Source: Candidatus Nomurabacteria bacterium
GTDB taxonomy: Bacteria > Patescibacteriota > Minisyncoccia > Phycocordibacterales > UBA9973
Reading direction: 5' to 3'
Assembly (NCBI GenBank): GCA_943350445.1
Contig: CALRAE010000002.1
Location: 2,134-66,133, forward strand
DNA length: 64,000 nucleotides
In this document: one piece after another, positions 5,381 to 60,502 of the stretch
Layout: each line of letters starts with the position of its first letter
How positions within the stretch are numbered: position 1 is the stretch's first letter
The notes under the pieces: generated by a model
Told to the model about the DNA's origin: nothing
What the model saw: only the letters and a program-made list of their open reading frames with translations
The model's database searches: none
Program-made: the position numbers and the translations under genes

Positions 5381-6157
5381 ATGAACAAAGGCACAGAGCA
5401 TCCGCTTTCTATACTGGCAAATCAAGCTTACGATGCTTTTTCAGATATGGGTTTCGAAATTGCGACTGGTCCAGAGTTGGAGAGTGATTGGTATAATTTC
5501 TATGTTTTAAATTTCCCAAAAGATCATCCAGCGCTTGACATGCAGGACACGTTTTGGATTAAAAATAGCAAAGATTTGGCGAAGAATTCTCCCGACTTCG
5601 CCCCCCTAGACAAGAGGACAGGGGACCAACACGACTCCTTGAATTCTTCGCCAAATCTTGTGCTACGGACTCACACTACGACTGTGACTGCGCGATCTCT
5701 AGAGAAGGCTGGTAAAGATGGCAGATTACCTGCAGCTTTCATATCAATTGGAAAAGTTTTCAGAAATGAGGCGACGGATATAACTCATGAGATGCAATTT
5801 TTCCAGATAGATGGAGCGATGGTGGGAGAAAATATTTCTATTGCTGACTTGAAGGGTGTATTGACTAAATTTTATAAAAAAATGCTTGGCGAAGAGATAG
5901 AAATAGAATTTCGTCCAAGCTTTTTCCCTTTTACTGAGCCTTCAATTGAAGTGTTTGCTAAATTTAAAGGGCATTGGCTCGAGATGATGGGTGCAGGAAT
6001 GCTCCATCCAAATGTGTTACGGAATATTGGCCTCGATCCATCTAAGGTGCAAGGTTTCGCTTTTGGTGGAGGACTCGACCGTATCGCCATGATCAAATGG
6101 AATATTTCTGACGTGAGACTTTTTTATCAGGGAGATTTAAGGCTCAACCAGTTTTAA
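5381..6157 (+). CDS. pheS: Phenylalanine--tRNA ligase alpha subunit, compact form, carrying an in-frame ~85-bp palindromic insertion
   Basis: Class II motifs LRTHTT and FRPSFFPFTEPSIEV. 258 aa, no N-terminal extension. Extra ~29 aa between DTFWI and LVLRTHTT coincide with the family A element. Confidence 0.85.
   Translation: MNKGTEHPLSILANQAYDAFSDMGFEIATGPELESDWYNFYVLNFPKDHPALDMQDTFWIKNSKDLAKNSPDFAPLDKRTGDQHDSLNSSPNLVLRTHTTTVTARSLEKAGKDGRLPAAFISIGKVFRNEATDITHEMQFFQIDGAMVGENISIADLKGVLTKFYKKMLGEEIEIEFRPSFFPFTEPSIEVFAKFKGHWLEMMGAGMLHPNVLRNIGLDPSKVQGFAFGGGLDRIAMIKWNISDVRLFYQGDLRLNQF
5573..5657. repeat. Family A palindromic element, copy 1, in frame inside pheS. The core is shared with the mnmA copy and is flanked by a perfect 18-bp inverted repeat AGATTTGGCGAAGAATTC/GAATTCTTCGCCAAATCT
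   Basis: Direct comparison with 59729..59825. The shared core is AATTCTCCC..TTCGCCC..GACAAGAGGACAGGGGACC.ACACG.CTCCTTGAATTCTT. Local GC is far above background. Confidence 0.7.
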
Positions 6158-6158
6158 T

Positions 6159-7976
6159 ATGAAAATTTCTTACAATTGGCTTAAATGGTACGTGCCCGAT
6201 GTTCCAACTGCAGATAAACTCGTAGATATTTTTAATTATCATCTGTGTGAAGTTGAGAGTATTGAAAAAAGAGAAGACGGAGATATAATTCTTGATTTAA
6301 AAATATTACCAAATCGTGCGCATGACCTCCTTTCTCATCAAGGAGTGGCTCGAGAGCTTGCTTCACTTTTGAATATTGCATACGTTGATCCAACGCCGAA
6401 ATATAAAATTCCGGAATCCAAAACAACTAAACTAGAAGTAAAAATTGATACAGGAAACTGCCGTCGTTACATGGGTAGAATAATCAAAAATGTGAAGGTC
6501 GGACCAACACCCGACTGGGTGGTGCAACATTTAGCATCAATAGGTCAAAGAAGTATAAATAACATAGTAGATGCGGCAAACATCGTCATGTTCGACTGTG
6601 GACAGCCAACGCATGCTTTTGATCTAGATAAAGTTCAGGGTGGAGTAGTAGTGAGAGAAGCAAAAGACGGAGAGGCTCTGAACACACTTGATAACAAAGC
6701 AGTAACTTTTAAAAATTCCAATGTCATTATTGCTGATTCTAAAAATACTCTCGCAATTGCTGGAATCAAGGGTGGGAAAATAGCAGAGGTTGATAATAAT
6801 ACAAAAAATATAATTCTAGAATGCGCTAATTTCGACTCGATATCTGTGCGTAAAACTGCTCAAGCCTTAAATATTTTTACAGACGCTCGAAAACGTTTTG
6901 AGAACGATCTATCTCCAGAATTAGCTCCATATGCTATGCGAGAGCTATCTTCTTTAATTTTTGAGATGTGTCCTGAGGCAACTTTTGAAGATATCGTGGA
7001 TATATATCCAAAGAAACAAGAATCAAGAAAGCTTTCTTTTTCTACCGATAGAGTTTCAAAAATTTTGGGTTTGAAAGTTTCCGTAGATGAGATAAAAGAT
7101 ATTTTAAAGAGATATTTGTTTGAGTATGCAGAAAAAGCAGGGAAGTTTGAGATTGTGGTGCTAACAATGCGCCTCGATTTAACTATTGAAGAAGATATGG
7201 CAGAAGAAATAGTCCGAATCCTTGGATATGACAAGGTTAAAGGAGATATTCCAAAGATAAATTTTAAACCGCAGGTAAATAAAACTCGGGCAAAGATAAT
7301 GTGGGCGAGGAATAAACTGCTGGCTGAGGGATATAGCGAGGCCATGACATATGCTTTTTGCAATAAAGGGGAAGTGGAAGTGCAAAATAGCGCTTCAGAC
7401 AAAAAGTTCTTGAGGACTAATCTGTCGGACGGATTAAAAGAAAGCATTAAGCTCAATCAATTGAATGCTCCATTTTTGGGAAGTGATAAAGTTCAAGTTT
7501 TTGAAATTGGCACTGTTTTCAAAAAATCTGGCGAAGAAATGCATGTGGCTTTTGGAGATAAAAAGGGGGTTAAAGAGATGAAGCTAGATGAATTTATTTC
7601 ACCACCTCGCCTTTCAGGCTCTCCTCCTCAGAAAGGAGGAGAGGAATTTCCTCCCCAATTTGGTAAGGAGGGGGCAGGGGGTGGTAATTTCAAAATGTGG
7701 TCTCTATTTCCTTTTATCGCCCGTGATGTGGCTGTGTGGGTGCCGGAGAATATAAAAAGTGCGGAAGTCCTAAAAGTCATAAAAGAAAATACAGGGGATA
7801 TGGTTATCCGCGGGCCGGAACTTTTTGATGAATTCAAGAAAGATGGGAAAGTTTCCTATGCGTTTAGAATGGTTTTCCAGTCGTATGACAGGACTCTGAC
7901 AGATGCAGAAACAAACGAAATAATGGCAAAAATAACTAGTAAGATTAAAGAAAATAACGGTTGGCAAGTGAGGTAG
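6159..7976 (+). CDS. pheT: Phenylalanine--tRNA ligase beta subunit, short form lacking the N-terminal tRNA-binding domain, with an in-frame G/P/E-rich insertion
   Basis: B3/4 and B5 regions (DLTIEEDMAEEIVRILGYDKV). C-terminal FDX-ACB segment (FPFIARDVAVWVPENI). Insert SPPRLSGSPPQKGGEEFPPQFGKEGAGGGNFK coincides with the family B element. Confidence 0.8.
   Translation: MKISYNWLKWYVPDVPTADKLVDIFNYHLCEVESIEKREDGDIILDLKILPNRAHDLLSHQGVARELASLLNIAYVDPTPKYKIPESKTTKLEVKIDTGNCRRYMGRIIKNVKVGPTPDWVVQHLASIGQRSINNIVDAANIVMFDCGQPTHAFDLDKVQGGVVVREAKDGEALNTLDNKAVTFKNSNVIIADSKNTLAIAGIKGGKIAEVDNNTKNIILECANFDSISVRKTAQALNIFTDARKRFENDLSPELAPYAMRELSSLIFEMCPEATFEDIVDIYPKKQESRKLSFSTDRVSKILGLKVSVDEIKDILKRYLFEYAEKAGKFEIVVLTMRLDLTIEEDMAEEIVRILGYDKVKGDIPKINFKPQVNKTRAKIMWARNKLLAEGYSEAMTYAFCNKGEVEVQNSASDKKFLRTNLSDGLKESIKLNQLNAPFLGSDKVQVFEIGTVFKKSGEEMHVAFGDKKGVKEMKLDEFISPPRLSGSPPQKGGEEFPPQFGKEGAGGGNFKMWSLFPFIARDVAVWVPENIKSAEVLKVIKENTGDMVIRGPELFDEFKKDGKVSYAFRMVFQSYDRTLTDAETNEIMAKITSKIKENNGWQVR
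7598..7692. repeat. Family B palindromic element, composite copy, in frame inside pheT. CTCCTCCTcagaaAGGAGGAG plus CCTCCCCaatttggtaAGGAGGGGG, with outer arms TCACCACC / GGGGGTGGTAA
   Basis: Nested perfect palindromes seen directly. The GGGGGTGGTAATT tail is shared with the mnmA copy. Confidence 0.65.
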
Positions 7977-8000
7977 AATTTGCTATAATATCTCTACATT

Positions 8001-43530: not shown

Positions 43531-44329
43531 AAAAATAAAACGTAAAAAGCTCTCGTATATTTTTTCATTTGTTTTTCTCTGTATCATTTTGTTTTATTTT
43601 CAAGTTGGTATTATAAATGGATTGTCTTATGTTAGTCATAAAGTTTTTAGCCCGATTTTATTTTTAGGAAATAATATTGGAGAAAAATTTACTAGTTTTG
43701 GTTCCTTTTTTATTTCAAAAAAATCTCTTTATTTAGAAAATCAAGATTTAAAATCAACATTAGATATAGACAGAGCAAAAATGTCGAATTATGATTCTAT
43801 TTTAGCTGAAAATATTTCTCTTAAAGAAATTTCGGGACGCAAAAATGAGAATGTGCCTATGGTTTTAGGTGTTATTTTGTCTAAACCAAACCAGAGTCCT
43901 TATGGCACACTTGTCATTGATGTAGGTCTCAAAGATGGTTTAAAATCGGGTGACCAGGTTTTTGCATTAGGCAATGTGCCAATTGGAACTATTGCTGAAA
44001 CTTATGTTAATTCTTCAAAGGTGACCCTTTTTTCAAATAGTGGCCAAAAAACTCAAGTAGTGGTTGGTCAAAAAAATGAGGAATCCAAAGCTGGTAAAAG
44101 TGTCTTTATGGAAATTGTTGGACGAGGTGGGGGAAATTTTGAAATGATTTTGCCGAGAGACTTTACATTACAAAAAGGGGATCAGGTTTTGTTGCCAGGT
44201 ATTAACAATCTTTTGGTGGGTATCGTCGAGACCATACTTTCTGACCCGCGTGAGCCTTTTATTAAAGCATTGATTGTTTCTCCAGTGAACGTGCAAGAAC
44301 TAAAATTCGTTGAAGTAGAAGTGAAATAA
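43499..44329 (+). CDS. mreC: Rod-shape-determining protein MreC
   Basis: N-terminal TM helix. Coiled coil. C-terminal beta-rich domain GDQVFALGNVPIGTIAETYV. Position after mreB. Confidence 0.7.
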   Translation: MEIKMSYLLDKKIKRKKLSYIFSFVFLCIILFYFQVGIINGLSYVSHKVFSPILFLGNNIGEKFTSFGSFFISKKSLYLENQDLKSTLDIDRAKMSNYDSILAENISLKEISGRKNENVPMVLGVILSKPNQSPYGTLVIDVGLKDGLKSGDQVFALGNVPIGTIAETYVNSSKVTLFSNSGQKTQVVVGQKNEESKAGKSVFMEIVGRGGGNFEMILPRDFTLQKGDQVLLPGINNLLVGIVETILSDPREPFIKALIVSPVNVQELKFVEVEVK

Positions 44330-45651
44330 TGAATTTTAAAATAGAAAAAAAATTAAAAAATAGTTTGGGTCGGGTGGGGGTTCTCACAACTTCACACGGA
44401 ATAATACAAACTCCCGCTTTTGTGGCAGTGGGCACCAAGGCTACTATAAAATCCTTAAATCCTGAACAGGTAAAAGATGCTGGCACACAAGTAGTGCTAG
44501 GCAATACCTATCATTTATATTTACAACCCGGAGATGAAATAGTCCGCGGGGCGGGCGGTATCGGTAAATTTATGAATTGGAGTGGGCCGACAATGACAGA
44601 CTCTGGTGGCTTTCAAGTTTTTTCTTTGGGTGCGGCTTATGGTAAACAAATTTCAAAGATAACTAAAATAACTGATCCATCTCTACTTATTCCAGAACGT
44701 TTCGATGATTCTGATGCTCCCAGGTTGGCGAAAATTGGGCAAGATGGGGTTTCTTTTAAATCACACTTGGATGGTTCTATTCATTACATCACTCCAGAGA
44801 AATCAATTCAGATTCAGCATAATTTGGGCGCGGATATAATTTTTGCATTTGACGAATGCACCAGTCCGACAGAAGATTTGAAATATCAAGAAGAAGCCCT
44901 CGAGCGGACACACCGATGGGCAGAGAGGAGTTTAGATGAACACAAGAAATTGGAAGAGTTAAAAAACATGGAAGAAGTGAAAAATAAAGCAGATTCTTCC
45001 TTTTTTGGGTCGCTGTCTACGGGTGCTCCCGTAGCGCTGCCTCTCAGCCCGTCGGCTTGCGAGACACCCAAAAAAGAAAAATCTGCTGACTTTTCACAAG
45101 CGCTATTCGGCATCGTCCAAGGTGGACGAGATGAGGCTCTACGAAAAAAATCAGCAAAGTTTATTTCTAGTCTAGATTTTGATGGGTTTGGTATTGGGGG
45201 TTCATTTGCAAAAGAAGACATGTCGACGGCGGTGAAATGGGTAAATGAAATTTTGCCCGAAGAAAAGCCTCGACACCTCCTCGGCATCGGTGAGCCTGAA
45301 GATTTATTTATGGGGATTGAAAATGGAGTAGATTTATTTGACTGCGTAGCTCCGACTAGACTTGGAAGAAATGGAACTTTGTACACTAAAAATGGGAAAA
45401 TTATAATCATGAATCGACAATTTAGAGAAGATTATTCTCCCATTGAGCGGGATTGTGCCTGCTATTCTTGCCAAAACTATACAAAAGCCTACATTGCGCA
45501 CCTTTTTCACGGCAAAGAAATGCTTGCGGGCACATTGGCTTCGATACATAATTTATATTTTATAGTCAATCTAGTGAAGAAAATAAGGCAGTCAATTTTG
45601 GACGATAATTTCTTCGAATTTAAAGAAGAATTTCTAAAAGAGTATCTATAG
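44329..45651 (+). CDS. tgt: Queuine tRNA-ribosyltransferase with a ~60-aa low-complexity GC-rich insertion
   Basis: TPAFVAVGTKATIKSL. GNTYHLYLQPG. C-terminal Zn site CACYSCQNY..H. Insert at about nt 44940..45110. Confidence 0.85.
   Translation: MNFKIEKKLKNSLGRVGVLTTSHGIIQTPAFVAVGTKATIKSLNPEQVKDAGTQVVLGNTYHLYLQPGDEIVRGAGGIGKFMNWSGPTMTDSGGFQVFSLGAAYGKQISKITKITDPSLLIPERFDDSDAPRLAKIGQDGVSFKSHLDGSIHYITPEKSIQIQHNLGADIIFAFDECTSPTEDLKYQEEALERTHRWAERSLDEHKKLEELKNMEEVKNKADSSFFGSLSTGAPVALPLSPSACETPKKEKSADFSQALFGIVQGGRDEALRKKSAKFISSLDFDGFGIGGSFAKEDMSTAVKWVNEILPEEKPRHLLGIGEPEDLFMGIENGVDLFDCVAPTRLGRNGTLYTKNGKIIIMNRQFREDYSPIERDCACYSCQNYTKAYIAHLFHGKEMLAGTLASIHNLYFIVNLVKKIRQSILDDNFFEFKEEFLKEYL
45008..45070. 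repeat. GC-rich insert inside tgt containing the palindrome CTACGGGtgctCCCGTAG (family C)
   Basis: Seen directly at 45018..45034. Local GC is about 65%, against about 38% background. Confidence 0.5.
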
Positions 45652-45690
45652 GGTTACCACCCCTAGCCCCTCCTTGATTAAGGAGGGGAG
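45652..45690. repeat. Family B element, intergenic copy, abutting the tgt stop codon: GGTTACCACCCCtagCCCCTCCTTGattaAGGAGGGG
   Basis: Nearly identical to the copy at 45951..45999. Reverse orientation relative to the pheT/mnmA copies. Confidence 0.65.
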
Positions 45691-45767: not shown

Positions 45768-48700
45768 GTGAAACAAAAAAATAAATTTTTTAGGGCATAT
45801 ATAAAAAGGTTTTCACTTGGACTCTTTGTCTTTGCTTTTTTTGTTTTTCTACCTACTTCTAGTGTATTTGCAGCAGCTACAAAAGACTCATTAATGAATG
45901 CTTTTAAGAGTTATGTAACTGTACTTACTACACCTGTTAACAATCAAGTAGTTACCACCACCCCACCTCCGGCACCCCTCCTTGATCAAGGAGGGGAAAG
46001 GGGTCCTAATCCTGTTTCTATTCCTGTAACACCACCACCCCCTTCGTCAAGCTCAGGGCAGGAAATAGTCTACGTCACACCACAACCTACAATAAACGAA
46101 GCAACCCTTCTTTCTGCTTTAAGAAACCTTCTCTCAAAAAAAGAAATTGCTAACAAATTACGTGGGTCACAAGGAGCACAAGGTATCCAAGGCCTTCAGG
46201 GTCCACAAGGAGCATCAGTTACACCAGCACCAAATCCTATCTCTTATCTACCTGTTCATATCTCATACCCTAATCCTTCTGTAAACTTCTCTGGTGGTGC
46301 TTCTGCAAACATAGCTAATCTATCTTCAAACATTCTCACTGCTACTACTTCTAATATTACTACTTTGAATGTGGCTGGAACTTCTACTCTTGCAGGAACT
46401 CTAAATGTCACTGGTGCCGTCACTCTTCCGTCTTCTGGAAGTTTAACTTCGCCTTTGGTTATTGGTTCTACATCTGCTAATGGCACTTTGACCTTAGAAG
46501 GTAACAACACTACAGGCAATACCGCAACTAATGCAAACTTAATATTCAAGGTTGGTAATAATGCAGCAACTACTGCGATGACTATTTTGAATAATGGCAA
46601 TGTGGGGGTGGGGACGACGACTCCAGGAAGATTTGTCGATTTGTTTTATACGGAGCCAGGTGCAACTCGTGCTTACAATTACCTACGTTTGACTGCTAAT
46701 AGTGCTGTGGGAGCTCATCATGGTACATCTGTCATCGAAGGATTTTATAAGGATAGTGGAAACGGTAATAGTTTTACTCACAGCCAGATCGCATTGGAGG
46801 GGACATCAGTCGGCAATGGTGCTGTAAATTCTATTGGTGAAATCTTGTTTTTGACAAAGTCAGATACAGGTAGCGCGTCAGCATTGCCTACTGAAAAGAT
46901 GCGTGTGACTAGTGATGGAAAATTACTTATTGGAACCAATCGAAATGGTACTGAGGATGGTGATTTGAGTTTCTATGGTATTTCCAATAGACTCATTTCT
47001 ATAGGATCAAATCCAAGTACCAATGTGGAAGGTAAAGACTTAACTATTAGGGCAGGAAATCCTTACCCGTCATCCACCAATCTAACAGGAGGGACTCTCA
47101 ATCTTTCAGGTGGAAAATCATCTGGCACAGGGACATCACAAATTCAATTCCAGACTGCTACCGCAGGTTCTACAGGAAACTCTGTTGTGACCCCAACAAC
47201 TAAAATGACAATTTTAGGTTCCGGCAACGTGGGGATTGGGACGACGAGTCCAGGTCTCCCACTCCAAGTTGTTGGTCACGTAAATGAATTTATTGCAGAT
47301 TTTTTATATAGCTCCTCTGGCTCAGGCGTTGCAGTTGGTGGTGGGGTTAATGGCACAACCGCATGGGTAGCGAGTGATTATCTTGGTGCGACTGAACCAA
47401 AACTACATTTAGCAACCTGGTCTAATCGTGCTAATGCAAATGGTATCACTATTGATACCTCTGGCAACGTCGGGATCGGGACGACGAATCCTAGTATCGG
47501 TTCGTGGGGTAAGGCTTTGACCATTCTTAATAACGGCTTGAACACTACCGCAGCCGCACTTGAAATTGCTTCTTTTGGACTCACAGCAGGAGACGGAGAA
47601 AGCGCTCTTAGTTTTGTAAATGGTGTTGATCTAGGTAATCGTTGGGAGGTGGGACGAATTCAGGCAATTCGTGGTGCTACCGACAATGGTTCAGGTCATA
47701 TTGCGCTATCTACACGAGTGAGTGCAACAGGAGGAGGTTTGGCTGAAGTGATGCGCTTGACTGACGATGGCAAAGTCGGTATCGGCGACACTACTCCAGA
47801 TTATAAATTAGACATAGAGACAGATGTTGCTTCGTATGTTGCCAACTTCTTCAATGATGGCAATCTTGCCACCCGTAGCGGTATCCTTATCCAAGGAGGC
47901 TTAGATGATCACACTGCAGCCGGACCATCCACTCTCATTGGTTTCCAAGATGGTGACGGTGGTGCTGTCGGATCAATCACTTTTGGTTCATCTGCCACAG
48001 CATACAACACTACATCAGACCAAAGATTAAAGAATTTAGTAAACGAAAATACTACTTCATCTCTCAATATCTTAAATCAAATAAAAATTCATGATTTCAC
48101 ATGGAAAGAAGATGCTAACCATAATCTATACACTGGAATCTTCGCTCAAGAGCTCTATGATGTTTATCCTCACGCAATTACTAAACCAATCAATGATGCA
48201 GACAACTGGATGGTGGATTATTCTAAACTCACCCCTGTAATGATCGCATCTATCCAAGAACTAGATCTAAACTTAAATAGTATCGCGGGCACTATCACTC
48301 CACTTGCTGGCTCAGCCAATGAATCTTTCGTGAATGCTTTCTTCGCAAACATTTTTTCCAAGGTTGATAATTGGATGGCGGATCGGGCGAATGGGATAGG
48401 AGATTTCTTTGCAGACAAAGTACATACAAAGCAAATCTGTGTTGCGAAAGCTGATGGCACAGAATTTTGTGCAGATGGTGACCAACTTCAAGCTATGGCA
48501 GGGGGATCAGGAACACCTCCAGCGCCAACCCCTACTCCAGCTCCAGTCCCCGCACCATCATCCGACACCACTCCACCAGTCATCACCCTCACAGGTGAAT
48601 CTACAATAACTTTAAACGTGGGAGACACATATACTGAACAAGGAGCCACAGCCACAGATAATGTAGACACAGGAGTAGCTGTCATAATCAGTGGTTCTGT

Positions 48701-48800
48701 AGATACATCTGTTGCAGGCACATACACTATCACTTATAATGCCACTGACACAGCAGGGAATAATGCGATAGAGGTGGCGAGGAGTGTAGTGGTTCAATAA
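45768..48800 (+). CDS. Large secreted fibre protein (GTG start). Collagen-like G-x-y triplets, repeated NVGIGTT(S/N)P beta-helix-like motifs, a peptidase-S74-type intramolecular chaperone domain, a Pro/Thr linker and a C-terminal Ig-like (DUF5011-type) domain
   Basis: Signal/TM N-terminus. GSQGAQGIQGLQGPQGAS. At least 4 NVGIGTTxP repeats. S-D-x-R-L-K motif TSDQRLKNL followed by ..GIFAQELYDVYPHAI..VDYSKLTPVMIASIQEL. (PT)n linker. C-terminus ITLTGESTITLNVGDTYTEQGATATDNVD..VAGTYTITYNATDTAGN. Confidence 0.6.
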   Translation: MKQKNKFFRAYIKRFSLGLFVFAFFVFLPTSSVFAAATKDSLMNAFKSYVTVLTTPVNNQVVTTTPPPAPLLDQGGERGPNPVSIPVTPPPPSSSSGQEIVYVTPQPTINEATLLSALRNLLSKKEIANKLRGSQGAQGIQGLQGPQGASVTPAPNPISYLPVHISYPNPSVNFSGGASANIANLSSNILTATTSNITTLNVAGTSTLAGTLNVTGAVTLPSSGSLTSPLVIGSTSANGTLTLEGNNTTGNTATNANLIFKVGNNAATTAMTILNNGNVGVGTTTPGRFVDLFYTEPGATRAYNYLRLTANSAVGAHHGTSVIEGFYKDSGNGNSFTHSQIALEGTSVGNGAVNSIGEILFLTKSDTGSASALPTEKMRVTSDGKLLIGTNRNGTEDGDLSFYGISNRLISIGSNPSTNVEGKDLTIRAGNPYPSSTNLTGGTLNLSGGKSSGTGTSQIQFQTATAGSTGNSVVTPTTKMTILGSGNVGIGTTSPGLPLQVVGHVNEFIADFLYSSSGSGVAVGGGVNGTTAWVASDYLGATEPKLHLATWSNRANANGITIDTSGNVGIGTTNPSIGSWGKALTILNNGLNTTAAALEIASFGLTAGDGESALSFVNGVDLGNRWEVGRIQAIRGATDNGSGHIALSTRVSATGGGLAEVMRLTDDGKVGIGDTTPDYKLDIETDVASYVANFFNDGNLATRSGILIQGGLDDHTAAGPSTLIGFQDGDGGAVGSITFGSSATAYNTTSDQRLKNLVNENTTSSLNILNQIKIHDFTWKEDANHNLYTGIFAQELYDVYPHAITKPINDADNWMVDYSKLTPVMIASIQELDLNLNSIAGTITPLAGSANESFVNAFFANIFSKVDNWMADRANGIGDFFADKVHTKQICVAKADGTEFCADGDQLQAMAGGSGTPPAPTPTPAPVPAPSSDTTPPVITLTGESTITLNVGDTYTEQGATATDNVDTGVAVIISGSVDTSVAGTYTITYNATDTAGNNAIEVARSVVVQ
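45951..45999. repeat. Family B element, copy in frame inside the fibre gene (encodes ..TTPPPAPLLDQGGERG..)
   Basis: GTTACCACCaCCCCAcctccggcaCCCCTCCTTGatcaAGGAGGGG, a close match to 45652..45690. Confidence 0.65.
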
Positions 48801-49325: not shown

Positions 49326-49535
49326 CACGACGGTGCGAGGAGCGGGTGGCGAAATTTTTCAACAGAAAAATATTTGCGACTACGGGTGGAGTTTTACTAA
49401 CTGAAACTTTTTGAAATATAACTTTTCTTTGGTACGGATTTTTCAATATAACCTTAGCCTTAAAAAATATTGAATTTCTGTGCGCGTCAGCCTACGAAAC
49501 CCCGCGAAAAGTTATATTTCGAAAAGTTTCTCACA

Positions 49536-49576: not shown

Positions 49577-50019
49577 TTGTAGGTGTCTATAAGCCGAATT
49601 TTGTCCCAATTTTGTTCACCACAGGTGATTCAAAATTGAGGACCCTGAGGATTTGTCGAAGGGTTCCCTCGACGTGGCTCGGGATGCTCAATTTTGTAAT
49701 TGCCTATGGCAAACAAAATTGGCAGATAACAATTTATCTAGGTCTAAAATTACTCTTAGACTCAAGCGATTCTTCCAAGCTTGCGCTTGGACACGATCTT
49801 GCACAGGGGTAAGGATTTAGCCGTTTCACTCTGATGTTACCACCAGACTATTCCATGGATTGCTCGATGGAACCCTAGCATCTCTGCATCAGCGTCTCTG
49901 CTCGCACCTATATATCACTATATGTGGGCGTTACCCACTACCTTTCTCCCTGATAAATCAGGGCTGTGTTCGGACTTTCCTCCCTATGAAATCATAGAGT
50001 AGCTATCCGACACCTACGC
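49577..50019 (-). ncRNA. rnpB: RNase P RNA (bacterial type)
   Basis: Minus-strand read has a P1 helix (GUAGGUGUC at the 5' end, GACACCUAC at the 3' end). It has P4 5' strand GGAGGAAAGUCCG, then ..GGUAACGCC.., then GGUGCGAGCAGAGACGC (P10-12-like), ..UGGUAACA..GGCUAAAUCC.. and P4 3' strand ACAAAAUUCGGCUUAUAG. TSS position fits the promoter. Confidence 0.8.
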
Positions 50020-59320: not shown

Positions 59321-60502
59321 GTGATTTTACTAAATCAAATAAATACAATGAAAAGAAAGAAAGTTTTTGTGGGGATGTCAGGGGGTGTTGACTCTGCAGT
59401 TAGTGCAGCACTACTTAAAAAAGATGGATGTGAAGTTATCGGGGTTTTTATCAAGACTTGGCATCCGGACTTTTTAGAGTGCAATGAAGAAGAAGAGCGT
59501 AGGGACGCCATGCGTGTGGCGGCTTTTTTAGATATTCCATTTTTAACTTTTGACTTAGAAGACGTTTACAAAAAAGAAGTGGCGGATTATATGATACGTG
59601 AATATAAAGCAGGGAGGACGCCTAACCCAGATGTGATGTGCAATAAAGAGGTGAAATTTGGTGCCTTTCTTAAAAAAGCTATTTTGATGGGGGCTGATTT
59701 TGTAGCGACAGGGCATTATGCGCAAAATGCAAATGAAAACTTCAAAAATTCTCCCACCTTCGCCCTCGGAGACAAGAGGACAGGGGACCGACACGGCTCC
59801 TTGAATTCTTCAAGTTTTCATTTGCAAAAAGGTGTTGACCCTTCCAAAGACCAAAGTTATTTCCTATGGACACTCACTCAAGAGCAATTAAAGAAAATTT
59901 TGTTTCCTGTCGGGCATTTAAAAAAGACTGAAGTCCGCAAGTTGGCGAAGAAATTTAAATTACCAGTAGCAGAAAAGAAAGATAGTCAGGGGATATGCTT
60001 TTTGGGTGCGGTGGATCTAAAAGAATTCTTAAAGCATTATATTAAGTCGAAACAAGGCGAGGTGCAAAATGAGAAAGGAGAAAAAATTGGTTTTCATGAT
60101 GGTGTAGTTTTTCATACACTCGGCGAACGTCATGGTTTTATTATCACTAAGAAAAGTCCGAATGACGGACCACACTATGTGGTTAGTAAAGATATTGCAA
60201 AAAATATATTAGTAGTTTCTCAGAAATCTCCCCTCCTTGTCGAGGAGGGGGTGGGGGGTGGTAATTCAAAAAAGAATTCCTTATCTATTATTGATACGAA
60301 TTGGATTTCTGAAATTCCAGAACCAAACAAAAATTACACAGCTCAGATACGGTATCATGGTGAATTTTTATCATGTAAAGTAGATTGTGCAACATCGGAT
60401 GTTGCACAATTGGTTTTTAAAAAACCAGTTTTGGTGGCTTCTGGGCAGTCTGTTGTGGCCTACGACGGTGATATTTGTCTTGGTGGTGGGGTTGTTGTAT
60501 GA
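59321..60502 (+). CDS. mnmA: tRNA 2-thiouridine(34) synthase MnmA, carrying two in-frame palindromic insertions
   Basis: PP-loop VGMSGGVDSAVSA. ATGHYA. KDQSYFL. C-terminal beta-barrel. Inserts at 59729..59825 (family A) and 60228..60266 (family B). Confidence 0.85.
   Translation: MILLNQINTMKRKKVFVGMSGGVDSAVSAALLKKDGCEVIGVFIKTWHPDFLECNEEEERRDAMRVAAFLDIPFLTFDLEDVYKKEVADYMIREYKAGRTPNPDVMCNKEVKFGAFLKKAILMGADFVATGHYAQNANENFKNSPTFALGDKRTGDRHGSLNSSSFHLQKGVDPSKDQSYFLWTLTQEQLKKILFPVGHLKKTEVRKLAKKFKLPVAEKKDSQGICFLGAVDLKEFLKHYIKSKQGEVQNEKGEKIGFHDGVVFHTLGERHGFIITKKSPNDGPHYVVSKDIAKNILVVSQKSPLLVEEGVGGGNSKKNSLSIIDTNWISEIPEPNKNYTAQIRYHGEFLSCKVDCATSDVAQLVFKKPVLVASGQSVVAYDGDICLGGGVVV
59729..59825. repeat. Family A palindromic element, copy 2, in frame inside mnmA. 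Same core as the pheS copy, with a copy-specific 23-bp flanking IR (2 mismatches)
   Basis: Flanks GCAAATGAAAACTTcAAaAATTC / GAATTCTTCAAGTTTTCATTTGC. The core matches 5584..5649 with few substitutions. Confidence 0.7.
60228..60266. repeat. Family B element in frame inside mnmA: CTCCCCTCCTTGtcgAGGAGGGGGtGGGGGGTGGTAATTC
   Basis: Perfect palindrome plus the GGGGTGGTAATT tail shared with the pheT copy. Encodes ..LVEEGVGGGNSK.. Confidence 0.65.

Follow-up and report, generated by a model that had tools for sequence, protein, structure and literature searches.

A 64,000-nt stretch of a Candidatus Nomurabacteria contig (CALRAE010000002.1; this whole stretch is called the window below) carries the same G+C-rich hairpin in frame in two unrelated essential genes, pheS and mnmA. 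What is this shared DNA, and how did each copy come to have a stem of its own? We refer to the hairpin as Family A. Copies of it sit in intergenic DNA or, in frame, in genes for housekeeping proteins, where they fall in permissive surface turns. We lean towards the view that both loci are copies of a non-autonomous mobile hairpin element, similar to Rickettsia palindromic elements (RPEs) or MITEs (miniature inverted-repeat transposable elements), that is tolerated in protein loops and whose stems would have been made by template switching.

The same hairpin in pheS and mnmA

The two Family-A hairpins are about 100 nt long, lie on the + strand inside open reading frames (ORFs) and occupy positions 5566-5665 in pheS and 59728-59826 in mnmA. 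An initial annotation, made from the letters of the window, had pointed to a common core of ~65 bp; the window alignment confirms it as 68 nt that are 88% identical (5582-5649 in pheS, 59744-59811 in mnmA), in sense orientation and in the identical reading frame. Translation across the element gives KNSPDFAPLDKRTGDQHDSLNSS in the pheS ORF (5381-6157) and KNSPTFALGDKRTGDRHGSLNSS in the mnmA ORF (59321-60502). Even when 3 mismatches are tolerated, the 64 kb contain the central 20-mer, AGACAAGAGGACAGGGGACC, at these two places and nowhere else, whereas 100 shuffles give an expectation of 0.

Each core sits on a long stem. In pheS the inverted repeat is perfect over 19 bp (5571-5589 / 5641-5659) and, if one bulged base is allowed, reaches 24 pairs (5566-5589 / 5641-5665), while the mnmA arms are 24 nt long and pair at 22 of 24 positions (59728-59751 / 59803-59826; mismatches A59746.C59808 and C59743.C59811). 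The flanking inverted repeats first described, of 18 bp and 23 bp, are real and longer than had been stated. Comparison of the arms also agrees with the earlier remark that they are unrelated outside their inner part, since GAAGAATTC / CAAAAATTC (9 bp) is all that the pheS and mnmA arms have in common. The element had been called palindromic, which needs one correction: its core is no palindrome but an asymmetric apical region atop the stem. Both element segments are G+C-rich in a window of ~38% G+C, and both hairpins are far more stable than shuffled sequence, with z-scores of -6.4 and -4.2 when folded as RNA and of -7.2 and -3.6 as DNA. A covariance model (R1), built from the first 17 copies of the family, finds two copies in the window, at 5566-5668 (88.2 bits, E=1.3e-15) and 59728-59830 (90.1 bits), and no more diverged Family-A copies in the 64 kb. 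The parts of the two copies are as follows.

5566..5665, + strand: whole Family-A hairpin in pheS (RNA and DNA folds, R1 match, stem extension)
5566..5589, + strand: pheS 5' arm TAGCAAAGATTTGGCGAAGAATTC; its outer 10 nt correspond to host-homologous codons, (N)SKD, the TTGGC in the middle is specific to this site, and GAAGAATTC, innermost, is family-conserved
5590..5640, + strand: pheS apical core, 51 nt, asymmetric, TCCCGACTTCGCCCCCCTAGACAAGAGGACAGGGGACCAACACGACTCCTT
5641..5665, + strand: pheS 3' arm GAATTCTTCGCCAAATCTTGTGCTA; the final 9 nt, CTT GTG CTA, are the host codons L-V-L (K-V-L at empty sites)
5576..5656, + strand: net 81-nt (27-codon) insertion in pheS, LAKNSPDFAPLDKRTGDQHDSLNSSPN (protein alignment of 120 homologues; codon comparison with the empty loci L016 and L017)
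59728..59826, + strand: whole Family-A hairpin in mnmA (folds, R1 match)
59728..59751, + strand: mnmA 5' arm TGCAAATGAAAACTTCAAAAATTC
59752..59802, + strand: mnmA apical core, 51 nt
59803..59826, + strand: mnmA 3' arm GAATTCTTCAAGTTTTCATTTGCA; the final 11 nt are the host codons F-H-L-Q
59735..59815, + strand: net 81-nt (27-codon) insertion in mnmA, ENFKNSPTFALGDKRTGDRHGSLNSSS (comparison with the empty-site orthologue P0155, locus L141)

The hairpin is an insertion

A similar peptide in the same frame of both window genes could reflect an ancestral or convergent protein feature, for instance a functional loop module. The loop is, however, missing from most orthologues. Among the 120 closest PheS homologues (Nomurabacteria and Paceibacteria, 74-100% identity), 69 have a 5-residue loop (DTFWIK-NEKE-KVLRTHTT) where the window protein has 32 residues. 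In MnmA the empty form is rare (P0155/L141) and reads ATGHYAQNKN-FSLVKG. Codon-level comparison with such empty loci gives a net insertion of 81 nt, or 27 codons, in both genes; in the four cases measured the net inserts are 81, 81, 78 and 78 nt, all exact multiples of three. The solved structures agree: in 2rhq a single residue stands opposite 30 PheS residues (62-91), and in 9hlv three residues stand opposite 25 MnmA residues (131-155). The element therefore expands tight turns of PheS and MnmA. Conservation moreover lies at the nucleotide level, synonymous positions included, the same DNA is translated in a second frame elsewhere (ETAPSESKGQGTH), and most copies of the family are intergenic (see below). 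We give the protein-feature explanation practically no credence and regard it as already refuted by the empty orthologues of PheS and MnmA. The earlier claim that the shared DNA had been inserted is borne out, and the alignment of orthologues defines the empty site in both genes.

Filled and empty states are intermixed on the PheS tree: by parsimony, the type of insert changes 38 times across its 120 sequences, a count that is indicative only given the poor resolution of the neighbour-joining tree. One intergenic spacer is empty in locus L086 (~1309-1332), holds Family A in L112 (5095-5194) and holds it in the opposite orientation in L066 (2025-2122), with different stems; the L112 and L066 copies appear to be independent insertions at one site.

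A family of hairpins between and within genes

The annotation had likened the element to the mobile palindromic elements of Rickettsia, and further copies bear on this likeness. An 18-mer of the core has ten true copies in metagenome-assembled genomes (MAGs) of Nomurabacteria, Paceibacterota and 'Saccharibacteria'. Three of the 13 genome matches (Thermoplasmatota L003 and L006, Prosthecochloris L010) are chance matches that share only the 18-mer and were discarded. A degenerate 19-position pattern is found in at least 120 metagenome contigs, mostly from aquifers, those of Rifle and Hainich among them. R1 gives 88 + 45 strong matches in the fetched loci, which together with the first 17 copies makes at least 150 matches, at least 132 of them distinct.

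The following counts are among the matches listed. The distinct copies (at least 132) occupy 68 distinct sites. Non-coding positions account for 96 copies; intergenic copies typically span the whole spacer, beginning within ~10 nt of the stop codon upstream and ending ~10 nt short of the following start codon. A further 34 lie within genes at 12 distinct sites, all in sense orientation and all open, the coding class itself having required a frame open across the copy. These sites are in PheS, MnmA (two sites), LeuRS, a CCA-adding/HD enzyme, RsmH, an RlmI-like methyltransferase, a GlcD-like oxidase, RecJ and others. The family is thus multi-copy and stands in frame in unrelated genes as well as between genes, as the mobile-element proposal has it.

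Two reading frames are in use among the 34 coding copies, KNSxAFALGDKRTGD in 27 and ETAPSESKGQGTH in 7; it is therefore not the peptide that is conserved, and no role at the protein level is indicated. The coding copies are presumably translated through by the ribosome, and their candidate peptides are KNSPAFALGDKRTGD and ETAPSESKGQGTH.

The hairpin might instead be cut out of the mRNA as an intervening sequence, or the ribosome might skip it, in an intron-like, bulge-helix-bulge-like or 'byp'-type manner, so that the protein would lack it. The long stem would join the two flanks in such a process, and the mitochondrial byp elements, which are G+C-rich hairpins in an A+T-rich genome, count for this explanation by likeness. 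Yet every one of the 34 coding copies (12 sites, two frames) is open and leaves the host frame intact, with the reservation on the coding class made above, and in the four measured cases the length of the net insert divides exactly by three. Rfam yields no intron or ribozyme family on the element, and intergenic look-alikes of split genes prove to be true spacers in comparisons with empty sites. We consider removal or bypass very improbable.

No Rfam family matches the element, whether the whole window is searched at the gathering threshold, which only two tRNAs pass, or the element at E<=10; its best matches are generic miRNA-hairpin models that score 15-19 bits against thresholds of 75-136. 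The literature searched holds no description of such elements in the candidate phyla radiation (CPR). Family A is apparently an undescribed, widespread family of hairpin elements of Paceibacteria/Nomurabacteria within this radiation.

Locus L060 carries two Family-A copies in tandem, at 7783-7872 and 7892-7985, 110 nt apart. They have a common outer arm, ATTATGAAAATCAAAAAATTT, the only clear case of a shared arm among the matches listed, and this looks like a local duplication. Four contigs with the core pattern (L142-L145, from IMG/VR) are classed as viral and may be either phages of CPR hosts or CPR DNA wrongly classified.

A conserved tip on variable stems

All copies have in common an asymmetric apical core of ~50 nt with the near-invariant region CUUCGCCCUCGGAG.CA.AGGACAGGG.ACC(..)CACG. 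Within the core a short helix, P2, covaries between subtypes (GAG/CUC, GCG/CGC, GAAAC/GUUUC) and is broken in the window's own subtype. Below the core lies a conserved, A/T-rich inner stem of 9-10 bp (AAARAATTY / RAATTYTTT), followed by ~10-25 bp of outer stem whose sequence differs from one genomic site to the next. About 45% of the copies listed have one extrahelical base, mostly C, in the 5' arm at 9-11 nt from the core; the window's mnmA copy has a C.C mismatch (59743/59811) at this position. Intergenic copies are paired over a median of 24 bp and coding copies over a median of 21 bp, and the G+C content of the arms tracks the local context (0.20 intergenic, 0.46 coding).

The stems are almost purely Watson-Crick. 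Across 85 distinct sequences, 93.1% of stem cells are paired, compared with 68.1% in shuffles, and two-sided changes fill 542 cells, compared with 165 in shuffles, while one-sided changes of the G.U type are almost absent (0-2 per pair). Between orthologous copies the identity of the core is 0.89-0.94, against 0.83-0.93 for flanking codon positions 1+2 and 0.49-0.56 for position 3, so that the core is conserved above the essential coding DNA that flanks it, its own third codon positions included.

Origin of the site-specific stems

Where, then, do the outer stems come from? Copies on the same contig (in L007, L060, L067, L011 and the window) have near-identical cores and unrelated outer arms, on which ground transposition of the whole hairpin was rejected. 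Identity statistics on the short, A/T-rich outer arms were too noisy to use. A long palindrome that was already present at the target was also rejected: empty sites show a quasi-palindrome of an A-run and a T-run of at most ~5 bp, such as AAAATAAAAATTTT in L141. Nor is the stem a simple inverted copy of one flank, as its middle (TTGGC/GCCAA in pheS) has no counterpart in either flank.

The outermost 7-10 pairs fall in host-homologous codons on both sides, altered so as to be complementary. At the pheS site the flanking codons read NSKD..LVL in the window and ESRK..SVL in L014, compared with NEKE..KVL at empty sites, and the same growth into host sequence is seen at the mnmA site and at the intergenic sites L021 and L090. 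Three pheS copies at one position have wholly different stems, all of them perfect or close to it: the window's has 24 pairs and one bulge, and those of L014 and L015 have 21 and 16 pairs. Where L014 has CCC/GGG, L015 has CTT/AAG. Such fully mirrored and often adjacent substitutions, with no mismatched intermediates, distinguish same-site copies in general, and the series at the CCA-adding-enzyme and methyltransferase sites behave alike.

These observations uphold what the initial annotation described and its main interpretation, though not every part of it. Its insertion and its palindromic family hold; the inverted duplication of target sequence that it proposed to accompany insertion is not supported in the form given, in view of a net insert of 81 nt, a stem middle that is missing at empty sites and outer pairs that are host codons. 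The annotation also knew of no described mechanism that would produce such flanks, and one that fits the data is replication template switching at quasipalindromes. By template switching a perfect stem is made, lengthened or mended in one event, inside coding DNA too (PMC8794818; see also PMC8604942 and PMC13100816). In mitochondria of Nematomorpha, 'coding palindromes' encode protein with both arms (PMC6649704). Mirrored multi-base changes, Watson-Crick stems and growth into the flanks, all found here, make up the published template-switch signature, and it is in this light that we read the stems, the causal step being inferred from the signature and not from a reconstruction event by event.

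A rather improbable alternative is that the insertion mechanism itself makes the stem, each copy being born perfect. The 3' end of a single-stranded intermediate might snap back on the inner stem (GAATTC or AAATTT) and copy the sequence 5' of the core, or a hairpin-forming transposase might invert the flanks. Several features would suit this: perfect, unique stems are found even among copies at one and the same pheS position and within a single contig; every copy has a self-complementary A/T palindrome as its inner stem; the inserts keep a constant length (81, 81, 78 and 78 nt) while their outermost 5-6 bp vary; and the single extrahelical base, where present, lies at the border of conserved and variable stem. 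Yet the variable stem middle is unlike either flank of the empty site, outermost pairs in host-homologous codons on both sides are not given by a one-step duplication, and no enzyme was identified. Orthologous arms at the CCA-adding-enzyme, rRNA-methyltransferase and MnmA sites are, in addition, homologous and differ by mirrored substitutions; therefore stems evolve after insertion too.

Possible core renewal, and insertion hot spots

Cores are more alike within a contig than chance would have it. Core identity is 0.879 between same-contig copies at different sites and 0.872 between orthologous copies, both above the 0.815 of random pairs (p=2e-4), and at the CCA-adding-enzyme site homologous arms carry two different core subtypes. 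Together these two observations suggest, as far as sequence comparison goes, that the core may be renewed by re-insertion or by conversion between hairpins atop persistent, site-specific stems.

The protein sites that Family A occupies hold unrelated hairpin families in other lineages. The PheS loop has at least 4 classified insert families plus many unclassified inserts. MnmA site 1, the turn after ATGHYA, has at least 10 unrelated families of hairpin inserts and is empty in only ~5 of 120 homologues (P0121-P0240, ~68-75% identical to the window protein); each DNA copy of these turn inserts that was examined (loci L138, L139 and L140) forms a long hairpin on a stem peculiar to it. Family D, found in L138, has the basal core motifs CCGCCTT and CCGACACGG in common with Family A. 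MnmA site 2 holds a further family, B, in the window and Family A in L047 (4695) and L068 (8433).

Weighing a mobile hairpin with template-switched stems

In the account that we favour, the outer stem would be neither carried by the donor nor present at the target beforehand. It would be built by intramolecular template switching (quasipalindrome correction), lengthened into neighbouring host sequence and kept Watson-Crick by the same process, with one arm copied onto the other in single multi-base events. The core would stay uniform as the propagating part, renewed by re-insertion or conversion via the common inner stem, bound by a trans-acting protein, or both, and protein function would filter the sites and stem sequences that survive. 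The mirrored changes, the growth into host codons and the Watson-Crick pairing lead us to infer that a hairpin-forming insert brings about its stem as a by-product at the level of DNA, with protein function acting as a filter.

A variant of this account, possible though short of probable, is that the apical core alone (~50-70 nt) moves, transposase-free, by template switching between hairpins or short A-run/T-run palindromes, with the common A/T inner stem serving as homology and each site then growing its own perfect stem into host DNA, or else that the core is recognised by a CPR-specific hairpin protein. Core-only movement would explain why many core families share landing pads in essential proteins, why cores are homogenised within a genome and why stems are site-specific.

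Several points weigh against a mobile hairpin with template-switched stems. No transposase, recombinase or autonomous parent element was identified, although no systematic search for one was made. There is no evident direct target-site duplication at the boundaries of the 81-nt inserts (GAT/TTG...AAT/CTT in pheS, AAT/GAA...AGT/TTT in mnmA), where at most 1-2 nt are repeated and the palindromic flanks make the boundaries ambiguous. Some intergenic sites counted as empty could be deletion remnants, which makes it uncertain that they were never occupied. Among stem mismatches, A.C exceeds G.T on the sense strand (71 versus 27), in the outer stem too, and the template-switch model does not predict this. 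Orientation is biased as well: all 12 coding sites are in sense, and so are 25 of the co-directional intergenic sites versus 7 that are not (p=0.002), which hints at a transcript-level constraint or else at a replication-strand bias, the two being indistinguishable here. R1 found almost no decayed copies in the window and the fetched loci, which is unusual for selfish repeats. Finally, if the core had a function under purifying selection locus by locus, its conservation would be accounted for just as well.

Some of these points would be expected of a functional module, a structured RNA or a DNA site bound by protein that the host selects locus by locus (for mRNA processing or stability, as a terminator-like spacer, or as the site of a CPR protein). 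Stem covariation would then be ordinary selection for pairing, as in the 'selection for a local stem' that the initial annotation offered as its second option. The conservation of the core beyond neighbouring essential coding sequence, the strong covariation of helices P1 and P2, the orientation bias, the filling of spacers from stop to next start codon and the near absence of degenerate copies all speak for such a module. Against it stand the presence or absence of the element among close relatives, its flipped orientation at one site and the many unrelated families that stand in for one another at the same sites. G.U pairs are missing from the stems, and the stem mismatches favour A.C on the sense strand, the opposite of what sense-RNA selection would leave; the wobble signature of a sense RNA is absent, and the A.C excess argues against selection on a sense-RNA helix. 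Helix P2 is broken in the window's subfamily, Rfam has no match, and there is no evident reason for a regulatory RNA inside loops of PheS, MnmA, LeuRS, RsmH and the CCA-adding enzyme. On balance we consider a functional module unlikely.

Other hairpins in the window

Family B hairpins (of the CCCCTCCTTGATCAAGGAGGGG type) occur in the window at 7600-7700 (pheT), 60228-60272 (mnmA), 45635-45690 and 45975-46028. They stand in frame in pheT (PPRLSGSPPQKGGEEFPPQFGKEGAGGGNFK), at the second mnmA site, right after the tgt stop codon and within an ORF for a 1010-aa surface protein (45768-48800), and Family-B-like peptides are also present in the PheS loop of homologues P0036 and P0055. The tgt gene for tRNA-guanine transglycosylase (ORF 44329-45651) contains a G+C-rich hairpin of a third family at 44988-45085, with arms CAGATTCTTCCTTTTTTGGGT / ACCCAAAAAAGAAAAATCTG, in frame (ADSSFFGSLSTGAPVALPLSPSACETPKKEKSADF). 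Two intergenic hairpins, at 49403-49530 (25-bp arms, 96% complementary, 78-nt loop) and 49631-49696 (19-bp arms, 28-nt loop), have cores unrelated to Family A. A G+C-rich island at 21472-23044 (56-58% versus ~38%) with a 327-aa ORF (22045-23028) may have been horizontally acquired.

Implications

Genomes of the CPR (Patescibacteria) are tiny and streamlined, yet this lineage tolerates and renews 27-residue insertions in PheS, PheT, LeuRS, MnmA, Tgt, RsmH and the CCA-adding enzyme. If our account is true, part of the unexplained 'CPR-specific insertions' would be selfish DNA and not adaptation, with consequences for annotation, phylogenetic markers and structure prediction. The distinct copies, at orthologous, empty and reversed sites, would form a natural series on the origin and upkeep of perfect stems, one that could directly test the theory that hairpins evolve by template switching. 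The architecture, in which a conserved tip stands on a variable stem, would also point to a new propagation mechanism, or to a hairpin-binding factor, in an uncultured phylum.

Comparison with known systems

RPEs, reportedly described as RPE-1 to RPE-8 by Ogata et al. in 2000 and 2002, are the nearest bacterial parallel. Like Family A, they are palindromic repeats of ~100 nt in a reduced genome, in frame in housekeeping genes as well as intergenic, and they add a tolerated surface peptide. We know of no transposase of their own. By the usual description of an RPE (a palindromic repeat of ~100-150 bp in both in-frame ORFs and intergenic DNA), the listed Family-A matches qualify, with 34 in-frame copies at 12 sites and 96 intergenic ones. 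Copies of an RPE family are described as sharing the whole palindrome, whereas in Family A only the apical core and 9-10 bp of stem are common, and 10-25 bp of stem are unique to each site and change in mirrored fashion. The host differs too, being CPR (Nomurabacteria/Paceibacterota MAGs) and not Rickettsia, so that Family A is an analogue at best, likened to RPEs (mentioned in PMC10969869 and PMC1779305) by description and not by sequence.

MITEs and other small palindromic repeats of bacteria (Correia/NEMIS, ERIC, RUP, BOX, REP/BIME; reviewed in PMC10969869, see also PMC3184786) resemble Family A in being short, multi-copy hairpin formers that are non-autonomous; they are often transcribed together with neighbouring genes and occasionally lie within one. 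The definition of a MITE, however, calls for terminal inverted repeats that are conserved among copies, for a direct duplication of the target site and for a cognate insertion sequence. In Family A variation is greatest at the termini and conservation is confined to the inner 9-10 bp (AAARAATTY), there is no clear target-site duplication, and no parent insertion sequence was found, though the loci were not searched systematically for transposases. REPs are extragenic, 20-40 nt long and mobilised by RAYT transposases, unlike Family A with its ~100 nt and a quarter of its listed copies intragenic.

G+C-rich hairpins are also known from mitochondria, the double-hairpin elements of Allomyces among them. 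As with Family A, the genome around them is compact and A+T-rich, they sit in spacers and sometimes in frame in coding sequence, no enzyme is known for them, and spread by replication or recombination has been proposed. They differ in being organellar and in having other sequences. To our knowledge, long site-specific stems with an ultra-conserved tip have not been described for mitochondrial hairpins. Further cases are the GC clusters of yeast (PMC4478555) and the repetitive hairpin-forming elements of sponges (PMC2800124).

Template-switch mutagenesis shares with Family A the mirrored multi-base changes without G.U intermediates and the perfect inverted repeats in coding sequence. It is a mutational process and not an element family, and it explains the stems but neither the shared 50-nt core nor its spread. 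In integron attC sites, hairpin structure and extrahelical bases are conserved and stem sequence varies, with conserved R/L boxes at the base and a variable loop. Family A resembles them in the single extrahelical base only; its conservation pattern is reversed, and it has no cassette or integrase context. In its behaviour the element comes closest to RPEs and to the mitochondrial G+C-rich hairpins, and by analogy it may be placed among in-frame palindromic mobile elements. What sets it apart from RPEs as described is the conserved tip on a site-specific stem.

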